Shown here: positions 1-8,428 of the stretch, piece by piece
Layout of the letters: every line of letters starts with the position of its first letter
Numbering within the stretch: the first letter of the stretch is position 1
NCBI GenBank assembly: GCA_016703425.1
Contig: JADJCA010000011.1
Coordinates: 314,050 to 378,049, forward strand
Direction: 5' to 3'
Source of the DNA: Myxococcales bacterium
GTDB taxonomy: Bacteria > Myxococcota_A > Polyangia > Polyangiales > Polyangiaceae
Length of the DNA stretch: 64,000 nucleotides
Notes under the pieces: generated by a model
Database searches by the model: none
What the model was told of the DNA's origin: nothing
Seen by the model: only the letters and a program-made list of their open reading frames with translations
Made by a program: the position numbers and the translations under genes

Positions 1-874
1 CCGAGTAGACGTGCTCGCCTTTGAGATCGACGACGGGCAAGTCGGAGGGCGTGAGAATGGCCAGATCGAGGCCGTAGCGGTCCGCCACGCTCCGCGCATA
101 GCCCTCGCTCGCGCGGAACGACGGAAGATCGGGGCGGGCGAACATGTACGCCTTGACGTGGCTCGCGCGGGCGCCGACGAGGCACGCGATGAACGACGAG
201 TCGAGCCCGCCGGAGAGCTCGCAACAAATGTCGCCGGGCGTGGCTTGAAGGAGTCGCTCCTCGACGCCGCGCACAAGCAGCTCGCGAACGCGGAGGCCCG
301 CCTCGCGGATGCCTTGCCGGCGATCGTGGTGGTAGCGCCACGCGCGGCGAACAAGCTGCCGTTCCGCGACGCCGCTTGGCGAGAGCGTCACGAGGTGACC
401 CGGCAAGACGCGTCGGACGCCGGCGAGCGGCGTCTCTGGGAGCGCATGAAGGAGCGACGGCGTTCCGACGATGAAGCGGTCGCGGTAGATCGGGTCAGGC
501 TCGCTGGCGCCCGCGAGGGCGAGCGGCAGCAAGCGGTTCGAGACCGCCCGTTGACGTTCCGCGATGAAGAGCTGCCGCGAGGCCGCGAAGCTCTTCCAAG
601 CGAGGACGTCGCAAGGGCGCGCGATGACGGCGATGAAGTCACCTTCGGCGCGGGCGAGGGCTACGTCGCCCTCGCGAAGGAACGCCTCGAGGAGCAGCAA
701 CGCGACCGCGCTCGGCGACTGACCCCCGAGAGGGGGCGCGTCCGCGCGAAGTCGATCGATGCGCCCCTCGAAGACAAGCGCGGCCTCGCCGCGCTGCGCG
801 GAGGGGTACGCTCCGGGCTCAAAGGCCACTCCGCCTTCGGCGCCCTTCACCAGAAAGCTGTCCGGCAGATGCAC
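1..874 (-). CDS. Lasso peptide cyclase (asparagine synthetase B-like, McjC/C protein). 5' (N-terminal) ~290 codons only; the gene runs off the left window edge.
   Basis: Hand translation of the minus strand in the frame occupying + triplets starting at 2 mod 3 gives ...IYRDRFIVGTPSLLHALPETPLAGVRRVLPGHLVTLSPSG...LQATPGDICCELSGGLDSSFIACLVGARASHVKAYMFARPDLPSF... The SGGLDSS PP-loop (ATP pyrophosphatase) motif is typical of AsnB-like lasso cyclases. A stop lies upstream at 884-886 and a candidate GTG start at 872-874. Not in the ORF track because the ORF is open at the window edge. Confidence 0.7.
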   Translation of the reverse strand, partial: MHLPDSFLVKGAEGGVAFEPGAYPSAQRGEAALVFEGRIDRLRADAPPLGGQSPSAVALLLLEAFLREGDVALARAEGDFIAVIARPCDVLAWKSFAASRQLFIAERQRAVSNRLLPLALAGASEPDPIYRDRFIVGTPSLLHALPETPLAGVRRVLPGHLVTLSPSGVAERQLVRRAWRYHHDRRQGIREAGLRVRELLVRGVEERLLQATPGDICCELSGGLDSSFIACLVGARASHVKAYMFARPDLPSFRASEGYARSVADRYGLDLAILTPSDLPVVDLKGEHVYS

Positions 875-942
875 GCTCGATGTCTATCAGCTCCCAAGCG
901 AGGCCGGCGCGAAGTGAGAACGTTCCGCCACCCGGTGCGCCG

Positions 943-1335
943 ATGACCGCGCACCTGTTTCTACTTTCCCTCGCGGGCACGCGCTGGCTCGGCCCCGAAC
1001 GAACGGCCGAGCTCTTGCGGCGGCTAGGAACGGCGCGACGGCGCGTGGGGCTCGCGGGGCGTCACAACACCAAGGAGGCGGTGCGCGCGCGCGTTCTCCA
1101 GGCGCTTCGGCGCGTGCCGCTCCCCATCGAGTGTTTGGACCAAGCGCTCGTGACTTGGTACCTGCTCAACTTGAAAGGTCACCCGGCGACGCTCAAGATC
1201 GGGATGCGTCTGTCGCCGGTGATCGGTCACGCGTGGGTCGATGCAGACGGGACCCTCTTCGGCGAAATCCCCGGCCTCGAAGACTTCGCCATCGTGAACG
1301 AGCTCTTGCCGTGGGGTGAGGAGGACGAGAATTGA
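943..1335 (+). CDS. Lasso peptide biosynthesis B2 protein (transglutaminase-like cysteine leader peptidase, McjB C-terminal-domain homolog).
   Basis: In-frame ATG at 943 inside track ORF 880..1335. The protein ...PIECLDQALVTWYLLNLKGHPATLKIGMRLSPVIGHAWVDADGTLFGE carries the Cys...His...Asp arrangement and the HAWV(D/E) motif characteristic of lasso B2 proteases. Divergent from the cyclase gene. Confidence 0.75.
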   Translation: MTAHLFLLSLAGTRWLGPERTAELLRRLGTARRRVGLAGRHNTKEAVRARVLQALRRVPLPIECLDQALVTWYLLNLKGHPATLKIGMRLSPVIGHAWVDADGTLFGEIPGLEDFAIVNELLPWGEEDEN

Positions 1336-1589
1336 GCGCGAAACTCGCGAAGGGTGTGTCGTTGACAGAGATCGAAGGCAAGGCCGTCCTCTTCGCGATG
1401 CGAACGGGGGACACGTTCGGCCTAAGCGAGACGGCCGCCGTCTTCCTGCGCGCCCTGCTCAAGGGGACGTTCGAAAGCGCGGTCGTTGCCGTCACCGACA
1501 GCTACGACGCCGATCCGAAAGCCGTTGGCGACGACATGCGCGAGCTCCTGGCGGAGCTCGAACGCATGAAGCTGCTCGAGCGAGCCTGA
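1332..1589 (+). CDS. PqqD-family RiPP recognition element (lasso peptide B1 protein).
   Basis: 85 aa (VSLTEIEGKAVLFAMRTGDTFGLSETAAVFLRALLKGTFESAVVAVTDSYDADPKAVGDDMRELLAELERMKLL) with the typical PqqD/RRE size and pattern. Start overlaps the B2 stop (ATGA-type coupling). Confidence 0.7.
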   Translation: MSAKLAKGVSLTEIEGKAVLFAMRTGDTFGLSETAAVFLRALLKGTFESAVVAVTDSYDADPKAVGDDMRELLAELERMKLLERA

Positions 1590-2470: not shown

Positions 2471-3425
2471 ATGAGTGCCCCTGCCGCCGTCACCGCCGAG
2501 AAGCTCTTCGAGGAGGCGTTTCTTCCGCTCTACCCGGAAGACGCCGCCCGGGATCTCAAGACCGCGCGACGCGTGGACGCGAACCCAGGGCAAAACCCGA
2601 ACATCGAAGAGCACCTCCGAGAGGCAGCGCAAATCTTCGCGGCCATGGCGCCGGAAGCGCTCGGCGGCGCCGTCGACCTCGACTTCACCGACGCGAGCGT
2701 GCACCGCCTGACGCCGCTCCTGTCGGCACGAGCGCGCGACCGCTGGCGCGCCGAAGACGCCCATGGCACGGCGCGCGGCACGCTCTTCAACTTCGTCGTC
2801 CACGGCGCGGCCTACGTCGGAGAGTGCGCGAGGCGCGGCCGGGAACGCCAAGTGGCTCGTCCGTCGCCCCCTCTGGGAGAGCCTCCTGGAGCTTCGTTCC
2901 GCCGCCGGCGTCGCCGAGCTCGCGCCCTTCCACTTTTGGCTCAAGGCCCTCTCCGACGACGCGCTCGAAGGCCGCGTGGCGTCGCTCGGAGACCGCTACC
3001 GCACCCACGTCGAGACCCCCACGCTCGACGTCAGCGCGATGCCGGTGTTCCTGCCGACGGAGCGGCGCCTGCCGCGCCTCACCAAGGTTCGCTACGACGC
3101 GCTCTACAAGTACATGAGGGCGCACCTTCCCGAGATCCGCGATCTCGGGCGCGACTTTCCGAGCCCCGAGCGCTTCGACGACATGGGGCTTCGCTGGGTC
3201 GACGCTCACATCCTCGGTGGAGGACGGTTGGCGCTCCTCGCCGCCGCGGGCCGCGGCGGGGTTCACCTCTTCTGGCTCGACGGCGCCGGCTTCACCAAGG
3301 GCGCCTTCGTCGCGGGCGACGACTTCCCCGAGCCCGTCGTCGACGTGCGCGGCGAGCGCATCGTGGTGATGACGCGCGACGGGGCGCAGGACGCCGTGAG
3401 CGAAATGTTGTGGTGGGGGCCCTGA
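2471..3425 (+). pseudogene. Hypothetical protein gene with an apparent +1/-1 frameshift near 2825-2845 (sequencing indel or pseudogene).
   Basis: Protein-like sequence MSAPAAVTAEKLFEEAFLPLYPEDAARDLK...NFVVHGAAYVGECA in frame 2 continues as ...NAKWLVRRPLWESLLELRSAAGVAELAPFHFWLKALSDD...VMTRDGAQDAVSEMLWWGP in frame 0 (track ORF 2763..3425). Both overlapping long ORFs (2276..4375 +, 2787..4424 -) are Arg-rich nonsense elsewhere. Confidence 0.4.
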
Positions 3426-3515
3426 GCCGTCCGAGAGGCGCGCTCGAGCGGTGCCTCCCCCAACGCACCGCCCAGCACGCACACCCGCGAGACCGTTTGC
3501 GTCTACACTCCGCCG

Positions 3516-5183
3516 GTGCAGTTCCCCGGCAAGACCGAGACGCGGCTCGCCATCGTGATCATGAGCGTGGCCATGGCGCCGCTGCTCGTGGCCGTGCTCT
3601 TTGCGCGCTCGATGTTTTCGCAGGCCGCGTCGGTGTGGTTCAACCCGGAGGTTGGCACCGAGCTCGACCGCGGCGTGGGCCTCTACAAGGATTACGTCCG
3701 CGTCATCAAGGAGGACATGCGGCACCGCGCCGAGCTGCTCGCGGAAGACGACGCCTTGCGAGAGGCCGCGAAGAAGAAGAGCCCGGCAGACCTGGAGCGC
3801 GCGCTCGCGCCGCTGTTCGCCAAGTACCCAGACATCGTTGCCCTCAAGGTCCTGACGGAGAGCGGCGAGCTGCTCGGTCAAAGGGACCGCGGTCGGCCCG
3901 TCGACGAAGGCCGCGAGCGGAGCCTCGACGTGACCAGGCCGCTGACCCGCGACGACGCCGCCGCCTCGCTCGTCGTGACCTTCGCTGCGGACCGCAACAA
4001 GCTCGACGGCCTGGAGGCGTCGAGCGCCGTCGTGGCCAAGTATCACCAGCTCGAAGGGTCCCGCACCGATCTGTACACCGGCTACGTGACGGCCTTCGCG
4101 GCGCTCCTGGGCATCACGTCCGTCGCCACCGTAGGGCTTGGCATCTTGCTCGCGCGCGGTGTCACCAAGCGCATCAATCGGCTCGGCGCGGCCATGAACC
4201 TCGTCGCGCAGGGCGATCTCACGGCCCGCGTGCCCGTTACGGGAACCGACGAGCTGACGGAGCTGGCCTTCGGCTTCAACCGCATGCTGGACGAGATCTC
4301 GCAGACTCGCGCGCGGCTCGAATTCTTGCAGCGCTTGGGCGCTTGGCAGGAGATGGCCCAGCGGCTCGCCCATGAGATCAAGAACCCGCTCACGCCGATT
4401 CAACTCGCGGTGCAGGAGTGCCACCGAAAGTATGCGGGGGAAGATGGCAAGTACCGCTCCCTCCTCGACACGACCCTCGAGATTGTCGAAGAAGAAGTCG
4501 CGACGCTAAGGCGCCTCGTCTCGAACTTCTCCAACTTCGCACGCCTGCCGCACTCGGAGCTCCGCGACGGCAGCTTGCGCGAGTTCGTGCTCGAGTGCTC
4601 GTCGCAGCTCGGTCACCTGGAGGATGAAGGCGAGTCCATCGGCGAAGACGCGCGACGGACCAACGTCACCATCGATTGGCGTGTCCCAACGGGCGAGCTG
4701 CCGGTGGCCGTCGACCGGCAGATGCTCCGCCGCGTCGTCGTCAACTTGGTGCGCAACGCCGTGCAAGCCATTCGCGGCGCGCGCGGCGAAGGCGGGACGG
4801 TGCGCGTCTCAGCGGAGGCCGAAGGCCAGGGCGCGGTCCTTTACATCGACGACGACGGGCCCGGCATCCCCGACGAGCTGCAGGCTCGGGTCTTTGAGCC
4901 CTACTTCACCACCAAGTCTGATGGCACAGGCCTCGGCTTGGCCATCGTGAAGAAGGTCGTCGTTGAGCACGGCGGCTCCATCAGCGCGGCGAAGAGTCCC
5001 CTCGGCGGCGCGCGCTTCGCCGTTCACCTGCCGCCGCCCACGTCGTTGGCGCTCGCGGCGGCGCGCGAGGCGCGCGAGCTGGCTCTCCGCGCCGGCGTTT
5101 CGACGAGTCAGCTGGACGTCCCCGAGATCAAGGCGCTAAGGGAAGCGGCGCGGGCGAAGAAGAGCGCCCGGGAGGACGCATGA
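3516..5183 (+). CDS. Two-component sensor histidine kinase (TM, HAMP, HisKA, HATPase_c).
   Basis: H-box LAHEIKNPLTPIQLAV; N/G-box region ...LVRNAVQAI...; G2 box GTGLGLAIVKKVVVEHGGSI; N-terminal hydrophobic segment. A GTG at 3513 is an alternative start. Confidence 0.85.
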   Translation: MQFPGKTETRLAIVIMSVAMAPLLVAVLFARSMFSQAASVWFNPEVGTELDRGVGLYKDYVRVIKEDMRHRAELLAEDDALREAAKKKSPADLERALAPLFAKYPDIVALKVLTESGELLGQRDRGRPVDEGRERSLDVTRPLTRDDAAASLVVTFAADRNKLDGLEASSAVVAKYHQLEGSRTDLYTGYVTAFAALLGITSVATVGLGILLARGVTKRINRLGAAMNLVAQGDLTARVPVTGTDELTELAFGFNRMLDEISQTRARLEFLQRLGAWQEMAQRLAHEIKNPLTPIQLAVQECHRKYAGEDGKYRSLLDTTLEIVEEEVATLRRLVSNFSNFARLPHSELRDGSLREFVLECSSQLGHLEDEGESIGEDARRTNVTIDWRVPTGELPVAVDRQMLRRVVVNLVRNAVQAIRGARGEGGTVRVSAEAEGQGAVLYIDDDGPGIPDELQARVFEPYFTTKSDGTGLGLAIVKKVVVEHGGSISAAKSPLGGARFAVHLPPPTSLALAAAREARELALRAGVSTSQLDVPEIKALREAARAKKSAREDA

Positions 5184-7579: not shown

Positions 7580-8428
7580 CTAGGTCGGCTTGCGGATCGA
7601 GGCGCGCATCGGCAGGAAAAAGCGCGTTCCCGTGAGCTCGTTGAGGCCGGCGTACAAGTCCGTGTCGTAGGTCTCGCGCAGCGAGGCGTAGGTCATGACT
7701 TCGTCGATGGAGCCAGACGCCACGACGGCGCCCTTCTTCATGAGCACCACGCGCGACGCGTATTGAGCGGCCAGGTTGAGGTCGTGCATGACAACGAGGC
7801 AAGCGATGCGGTCTTTGGCGGTGACCTCGGCCAAGAGGTCGTAGAGGCCGAGCGCGTGCCCCACGTCGAGGAACGCCGCCGGCTCGTCCAACAGCAGGAC
7901 CTCAGGCTTCTGCGCCAGTGCTCGCGCGATGGACACCCGCTTGTGTTCCCCGCCGCTCAGCGCCGAGGCCGGGCGATGGGCGAGGTCACGAAGGTCGCAG
8001 CGCGCGAGGACATCCTCGACGATGGCTTCGTCTTCGTCGGAGGGGCGCATCCACGCCCCCTGGTGTGGCGCACGCCCCATGCGGACAATCTCCCGCACCG
8101 AGAAGGAGAACGCGATCTCCTCGGTTTGGTGCACGACGGCGAGCCGCTGGGCCACGGCCCGACGCTCCAAGTCCCCGAGGGCCGTGCCAAAGAGCCGCAC
8201 GGCGCCCGACGTGGGCGTCATCGCGCCGGCGAGGAGCTTGAGTAGCGTCGACTTGCCGGCGCCGTTGGGACCAAGGACGGCCACGAGCTCGCTGGCAGCC
8301 ACGTGCAGCGTCACGTCACGAACGACGTCGCGCGCCTCGGCGTAGCCCGCGTGGACGCGCTGGGCCTCGACTGGGTGCGCGCCTCCTGCGGCGGCTGATT
8401 CAGTTTGTTCACGCGGCGCGGCGCGCAT
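7580..8428 (-). CDS. ABC transporter ATP-binding protein, iron-siderophore/heme (FepC/HmuV) type.
   Basis: Walker A GPNGAGKST, signature LSGGEHKRV, Walker B LLLDEPAAFLD, H-loop VMHD. Confidence 0.8.
   Translation of the reverse strand: MRAAPREQTESAAAGGAHPVEAQRVHAGYAEARDVVRDVTLHVAASELVAVLGPNGAGKSTLLKLLAGAMTPTSGAVRLFGTALGDLERRAVAQRLAVVHQTEEIAFSFSVREIVRMGRAPHQGAWMRPSDEDEAIVEDVLARCDLRDLAHRPASALSGGEHKRVSIARALAQKPEVLLLDEPAAFLDVGHALGLYDLLAEVTAKDRIACLVVMHDLNLAAQYASRVVLMKKGAVVASGSIDEVMTYASLRETYDTDLYAGLNELTGTRFFLPMRASIRKPT

Follow-up and report, generated by a model that had tools for sequence, protein, structure and literature searches.

The 64 kb window analysed here, the whole stretch of 64,000 nucleotides from contig JADJCA010000011.1 of a Myxococcales bacterium (assembly GCA_016703425.1), opens at its left edge within a group of genes that very probably forms a minimal four-gene lasso-peptide cluster of the split-B class II type, the right-hand three quarters of which lie in the window. 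They comprise the start of a gene for an asparagine-synthetase-like cyclase (C) and, transcribed away from it, genes for a leader peptidase (B2) and for a PqqD-like protein (B1), the recognition element (RRE) of peptides that are made on the ribosome and modified after translation (RiPPs). The fourth gene, encoding the precursor (A), lies outside the window. The features of the cluster in the window are the following:

1 to 874, minus strand: cyclase (C), N-terminal 291 of 626 amino acids (aa), GTG start at 874-872, truncated by the left edge; PF00733
194 to 214, minus strand: PP-loop ATP-binding motif SGGLDSS, cyclase residues 221-227, invariant in 34 family cyclases
875 to 942, no strand: divergent intergenic region of 68 bp between the cyclase gene and the B2-B1 operon, with a gene start on either side
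943 to 1335, plus strand: B2 leader peptidase, transglutaminase-like Cys protease, 130 aa; NF033537, PF13471
1332 to 1589, plus strand: B1 RRE, PqqD-like, 85 aa; PF05402, match to TbiB1 (5V1U)

The sequence-only reading of this DNA had described the plus-strand genes as a B2 cysteine protease with a HAWVD motif followed by a PqqD-like B1, and both assignments are borne out by family models. A mismatch of the 943-1335 product with lasso B2 models, which would have counted against a lasso cluster, was not seen, as B2 scores well above the cut-off of NF033537, 'lasso peptide biosynthesis B2 protein' (E 3.5e-18, 66.2 bits, cut-off 33), and also matches Pfam PF13471 (65.3 bits, cut-off 26). Its motifs GHAWVD and ECLDQ are encoded at 1225-1242 and 1129-1143, and Cys64 (ECLDQ) and His96 (GHAW) are invariant in eight aligned sequences, the characterised BsfB2 included. 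The start at 943 is backed by an end-to-end alignment with homologues, and B2 found no match by sequence in the PDB. The TTG start of B1 overlaps the B2 stop by 4 bp. B1 matches PqqD (PF05402, 37.4 bits, cut-off 23.4) and, in the PDB, the lasso RRE TbiB1 (5V1U; E 7.9e-4), and it also gives a match to TIGR04353, the PqqD model of kinase systems, that is below threshold (27.9 versus 35 bits). A role in the biosynthesis of pyrroloquinoline quinone was considered and rejected, since the neighbours of B1 are B2 and the cyclase, and no Pqq family occurs among the neighbours of the locus.

On the minus strand, an Asn-synthetase-like cyclase with the motif SGGLDSS had been proposed to run off the left edge. 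The part contained in the window, whose N-terminus reads VHLPDSF from the GTG at 874-872, matches the Pfam family Asn_synthase (PF00733; E 4e-8, 33.7 bits, cut-off 21), in agreement with that proposal. For all three genes, chance is no plausible source of the family matches. It is identical to the first 291 residues of P0009, a protein of 626 aa listed by NCBI as 'MAG: asparagine synthase [Myxococcales bacterium]', and the full-length cyclase of 626 aa is present in the 99.1%-identical contig L007/L001 (contigs and loci are given by our L numbers), where it reaches 55.8 bits against PF00733. The gene could be taken for an ordinary asparagine synthetase (AsnB) that neighbours unrelated genes by chance: the Pfam match is to a generic family, and every named protein among the 142 homologues found at E <1e-20 in a protein search is called asparagine synthase. 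Yet the full-length protein has no Cys2 (it starts MHLPDS), shows the Asn_synthase domain only, with no glutamine amidotransferase (GATase) match in the family search, and scores 60.4 bits against the cut-off of 267 bits for the AsnB equivalog model TIGR01536, for which reasons the housekeeping reading was rejected. In addition, its constant head-to-head partner is a lasso B2, with genes for a PqqD protein and the conserved precursor never far away. What the locus presents is thus not a full-length asparagine synthetase lacking a precursor, and the probability of a chance neighbour is practically negligible. In an AlphaFold2 (AF2) model of the cyclase (predicted local distance difference test score 88.4), the predicted fold is the one expected of a lasso cyclase; the nearest folds are those of TsnB9, beta-lactam synthetase and carbapenam synthetase, three amide-forming enzymes of the AsnB fold (Foldseek E 6e-17 to 1e-13), and that of AsnB. 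No lasso cyclase was among the PDB matches, and the sole PDB sequence match is CarA (E 2e-6). The three amide-forming enzymes have the PP-loop and a fold of two domains in common with the cyclase, but are only 14-17% identical to it and act on small molecules rather than peptides.

The observation that no precursor is visible agrees with a tblastn search with the precursor peptide, which gave no match across the 64 kb window. The left flank was taken from contigs 96.5-99.1% identical to the window. Exact look-ups of the B1 and B2 sequences returned seven contigs; the best of them is a contig of 455 kb from assembly GCA_964269505.1 (L001/L007), 99.1% identical over 11.6 kb. There, the precursor gene lies at a position equivalent to about -1115 to -999 of the window, i.e. 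~1.0-1.1 kb to the left of base 1, on the plus strand; in L007 it ends at 8059 and converges on the cyclase gene, overlapping its 3' end by 8 bp. It encodes a peptide of 38 aa, MKKNYTKPVIVQLGNVANIKSNSTGPSSDGKKYAGFFK, from an internal GTG. Gene callers gave this open reading frame (ORF) 54 aa from a TTG start, but the internal GTG was chosen because an AAGGAG ribosome-binding site lies 6 nt before it, and equivalent sites precede the precursor in every relative. All five strain-level contigs that reach the region encode the identical peptide, and the differences between their genes are synonymous only. The leader carries the motif Y-x-K-P-x-[LIV]-x3-G, and the YxxPxL-type leader motif is known as the RRE-binding motif (PMC10368454). 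In the core, Asp is the only acidic residue, Glu being absent, and there is no Cys and hence no disulfide. Of the proposal that precursor and exporter lie beyond the left edge, the precursor half holds, with the gene ~1 kb out in the 99.1%-identical contig, whereas the exporter half does not: extension to the left through the relative contig yielded the 38-aa precursor ORF, and neither an exporter nor an isopeptidase within ~8 kb. The suggested search for a lasso core with Thr at position -2 would have missed the precursor, as the family lacks this residue under any reading of the cut, position -2 being Ile, Lys or Ser/Gly/Ala.

More than 30 loci with shuffled gene order have a peptide of this family next to C, B2 and B1; they belong to Alpha- and Betaproteobacteria and Myxococcota and include two from cultured strains. 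A protein search with the 54-aa precursor call identified 8 relatives, and a back-translated pattern scan identified 8 GTDB species genomes (Xanthobacteraceae, Afipia, Beijerinckiaceae, one betaproteobacterium and one Polyangiaceae metagenome-assembled genome); the same kind of scan also returned 15 metagenome contigs with the peptide. The homologues of the cyclase led to the peptide in three more divergent loci and in two cultured strains, Afipia (Oligotropha) carboxidovorans OM5 and Tardiphaga alba. The peptide of T. alba differs from that of OM5 at three core positions (…SNSTGPSTDGKKYSGFFK versus …SNHTGPSSDGKKYAGFFK), and owing to its change of Ala14 to Ser it escaped the pattern scan. Both finished genomes lack a call for the precursor gene in the gene tables used (OM5, L040 ~2046-2160, CP002826.1; T. 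alba, L041 ~2111-2225, CP036498.1). The consensus of the family is M-K-x-Y-x-K-P-x-[LIV]-x-[QK]-[LI]-G-x4-I-K-[S/G/A]-N-[S/H/A]-T-G-P-S-[S/T/V]-D-G-[K/R/Q]-[K/Q]-Y-[A/S/Y]-G-[F/V/Y]-F-K. A further small ORF of 48 aa is called between precursor and exporter in L016 (1545-1691); it has no lasso features, was not found in the other loci searched and is probably spurious.

At the locus itself the genes are arranged as A> <C B2> B1>. The opposite direction of the cyclase gene had been regarded as unusual, but wherever a related locus holds both C and B2, the two stand head-to-head (18 of 18 loci). The order of B2 before B1, also thought unusual, is so within the family, given that the position of B1 differs from locus to locus and that B1 follows directly behind B2 in the window species only. 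A converges on C in 13 loci and heads a PIMT-like-methyltransferase/A/D/B1 operon in ~12. The 8-bp overlap of the convergent genes A and C is found in L007 (8052-8059) and L010 (10107-10114), while the two genes are 7-157 bp apart in other members of the family; since the overlap leaves no space for a terminator, transcription of A must run antisense into C. In the Xanthobacteraceae/Afipia branch, a gene for a PIMT/PCMT-like O-methyltransferase (PF01135, 77.9 bits) lies directly upstream of the precursor gene (L016 296-1258 and L040 975-1892; also L018-L020, L025, L028, L029, L031, L035 and L037). As the only Asp of the core is the presumed ring acceptor, the C-terminus would be the only free carboxylate available to such an enzyme; the one paper checked on this point describes lasso clusters with a linked PIMT from actinobacteria and firmicutes only.

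RiPPs usually have a leader that is more constrained than the core. In this family, pairwise codon differences among 12 loci are 400 synonymous and 72 non-synonymous in the core (last 18 codons), compared to 290 synonymous and 369 non-synonymous in the leader (16 codons), which argues for a much stronger constraint on the core than on the leader. The enzymes of the cluster are only 40-50% identical across the family, against the near-invariant core. A core so little changed in three bacterial classes suggests that its structure or target is tightly constrained.

As Asp is the only acidic residue, residue 1 of the product would be Ser/His/Ala (ring of 7 residues), Asn (ring of 8) or Ser/Gly/Ala (ring of 9). 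A cut placed by the only nearby Thr would give Pro at +1 and Asp at +4. We consider it reasonably likely that the product is a lasso peptide of 18 residues with a Ser1-Asp9 ring, released by a cut after Ile(-2)-Lys(-1) that would separate MKKNYTKPVIVQLGNVANIK from SNSTGPSSDGKKYAGFFK. Only Ser, Gly (L021, L042 and L044) or Ala (L030) occurs directly behind the invariant Ile-Lys; these are the classic residues at position 1 of lasso peptides, and this restriction favours the Ser1-Asp9 ring, all the more as Ser is encoded by both of its codon families. The invariant Ile-Lys also mirrors Ile(-2)-Arg(-1) before Gly1 of BsfA, where the cut ...AIIR/G was proven experimentally (PMC10368454). Further support comes from the lack of a precedent for Lys at -2 and from the RRE tyrosine that is proposed to contact Thr(-2), which is replaced by Thr28 in B1 of the window and by Ser in the relatives.

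Several observations weigh against this reconstruction. A cut after Lys places the leader motif at Y(-16)/P(-13)/I(-11)/G(-7), one residue short of the canonical register of -17/-14/-12/-8 (PMC10368454), which would instead call for Asn as residue 1. The lasso-cyclase NCBIfam models NF033561 (71.5 versus 300 bits) and NF033535 (27.5 versus 525 bits), both narrow models of the kinds 'subfamily' and 'exception', are not reached by the cyclase, and B1 stays below the cut-off of the lasso-specific NF033530 (49.9 versus 70 bits). The precursor sequence is read from a 99.1%-identical relative rather than from the window's own contig. Homologues of a D-type or ABC-2 exporter above 30% identity are absent from the window and the L007 flanks, where only generic ABC ATPases at 25-30% are found, and no immunity gene is present at the locus.

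The register would be restored if B2 cut one residue later, with Lys at -2, to give a product of 17 residues (NSTGPSSD-GKKYAGFFK, mass 1771.853) closed by an Asn1-Asp8 ring. The motif residues Tyr, Pro, Ile/Leu and Gly would then stand exactly at -17, -14, -12 and -8 (PMC10368454), the Asn is invariant in every member of the family, and metanodin provides one experimental precedent for Asn as ring residue 1 (PMC12670498). However, Lys at -2 is without precedent, metanodin itself retains Thr(-2), and position -1, which is normally variable, would here admit only Ser, Gly or Ala, with Ser drawn from both of its codon families, next to leader positions that each accept 4-6 different residues. Leader spacing is also not fixed, paeninodin-type leaders placing Tyr at -15, and we regard the Asn1-Asp8 ring as a possible but doubtful outcome. 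A third reading, in which a 7-residue ring links the variable residue (Ser/His/Ala) to Asp (STGPSSD-GKKYAGFFK, mass 1657.810), is compatible with Ser and Ala as acceptable first residues and with the existence of seven-residue rings, known from the xanthomonins. It would, however, make the most variable position of the core residue 1, where about half of the family has His, for which there is no precedent at this position, and it would shift the leader register by +1, in the opposite direction; we consider it very improbable.

In the favoured Ser1-Asp9 reading, B1 would bind the Y-x-x-P-x-[ILV] motif of the leader, and B2, through Cys64 and His96, would cut behind Ile(-2)-Lys(-1) and so remove the leader of 20 residues. 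By means of its SGGLDSS PP-loop, the cyclase would then adenylate the side chain of Asp9 and join it to the amine of Ser1, so that the ring closes around the threaded tail. The result would be a class II lasso peptide of 18 residues, SNSTGPSSD-GKKYAGFFK, with a 9-residue ring, a monoisotopic mass of 1858.885 and a net charge of about +2, in which Tyr13 and Phe16/Phe17 would be the likely plugs.

The cluster represents an uncharacterised family within the well-known lasso class. All four components of known split-B class II clusters (lariatin, fusilassin, TbiB1-type) recur in it, namely an AsnB-like PP-loop cyclase, a transglutaminase-like Cys protease, a PqqD-like RRE and a precursor whose leader bears YxxPxL, and it likewise has a single Asp acceptor 7-9 residues into a core without Cys. 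It differs from them in the absence of Thr(-2), the replacement of the RRE tyrosine by Thr or Ser, the absence of an exporter, the divergent genes C and B2, the precursor gene running into the 3' end of C, and a core more conserved than the leader. The system of BsfA, BsfB1 and BsfB2 from Bradymonas sediminis is alike in the likely context of the cut, which would consist of a beta-branched hydrophobic, a basic and a small residue (I-K/S here, I-R/G in BsfA) (PMC10368454), and also in the YxxPxL leader, the split B proteins and the deltaproteobacterial/Myxococcota-type host. Unlike in BsfA, the leader motif would be one residue nearer to the cut and the predicted ring has 9 rather than 8 residues; B2 of the window is only 25% identical to BsfB2. 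Every lasso cluster with Ile/Val(-2) was found to contain a kinase or phosphotransferase gene (PMC10368454). Among the called genes of L001-L016 and L040-L044, no HPr-kinase-like kinase or phosphotransferase Pfam family was detected, and since none of the loci examined contains a kinase, the family does not belong to the kinase-linked Ile/Val(-2) group. Metanodin, which stems from a soil metagenome (PMC12670498), resembles the family in its uncultured environmental origin and in a precursor missed by automatic annotation, but it keeps Thr(-2), has an unrelated core sequence and would share Asn1 only under the Asn1-Asp8 reading. A full-text literature search for the core string KYAGFFK returned no paper, and a taxonomic paper mentions antiSMASH 'lassopeptide' clusters without known homologue in some Afipia genomes.

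A dedicated exporter or immunity gene is common in lasso clusters but optional. In relatives, the cluster is accompanied by either a McjD-like half-transporter or an ABC-2 pair, whereas in the window species neither the 64 kb window (62 kb on the right) nor the ~8 kb examined on the left contains an exporter or isopeptidase; this species is the only well-sampled member of the family without a transporter. This could mean that the cluster is intact but silent, or that its product is not secreted, the exporter having been lost and the peptide being retained or leaving through an unlinked transporter. On the other hand, strains 96.5-99.1% identical to the window keep all four genes intact, and together with the purely synonymous changes in the precursor gene this argues for continued selection. 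L044 likewise has no full exporter, although its contig is short. On balance a silent cluster or unsecreted product seems unlikely. In the Polyangia-like relative L042, the locus carries a D-type exporter and an ABC-2 transporter together, and a 432-aa RCC1/WD40-repeat protein is encoded between B2 and the D-type ABC exporter (3244-4542).

Both promoters, that of the cyclase gene and that of the B2-B1 operon, must lie inside the 68-bp gap at 875-942. A sigma-70 consensus scan of the cluster, which is uninformative for this organism, gave zero promoters, and the only two terminator-like sites, overlapping the B2 start at ~L007 9992-10013, are equally uninformative, as 2.9 are expected from shuffled sequence. 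An Rfam scan of the window found no RNA family. The left neighbours of the cluster (332, 353, 545 and 124 aa) have no family matches apart from a weak one to YkuD, and tblastn with the 332- and 353-aa proteins found no counterpart in ten other family loci (L010, L016, L017-L024). Downstream genes for a lipoprotein, a histidine kinase and a thioredoxin were not seen beside the cluster in other family loci either, and the flanking neighbours were excluded from the cluster on these grounds. Directly after the B1 stop, at 1590-1622, lies a pentanucleotide repeat, (GCGAC)n, that counts 6.6 copies in the window and varies in copy number among near-identical strains (~2 units fewer in L003/L005 and 3 fewer in L001, as read by eye from aligned sequences). 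A 317-aa hypothetical gene at 2471-3425 is intact in L001, but broken in the window by a 1-bp insertion near 2841, which is either an assembly error or the mark of a pseudogene.

A more far-reaching interpretation would combine a B1/B2 recognition rule outside the known ones with antisense control of the cyclase gene through the overlap with A and with a shared role other than that of an antibiotic. The rule would be either a kinase-less Ile(-2) with a shortened register or the unprecedented Lys(-2) with an Asn1 ring, and the role, signalling or binding to a conserved cellular target, would explain the conservation of the core; we regard this combination as distinctly unlikely.

For the window itself, the analysis completes a partial cluster that had been correctly recognised. 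Lasso peptides are mined as stable scaffolds and as antibiotics, and the rules used for mining lean heavily on Thr(-2), with which this family breaks; its cyclases are named only 'asparagine synthase', and even in OM5 and T. alba the precursors went uncalled. Of particular interest to specialists are the non-Thr cut site without a kinase, the core that is near-frozen across three classes and the conserved convergent overlap of A and C. The family constitutes a natural test of how B1 and B2 find their cut when both Thr(-2) and a kinase are missing, and offers a single, highly conserved peptide that is obtainable from a cultured strain.

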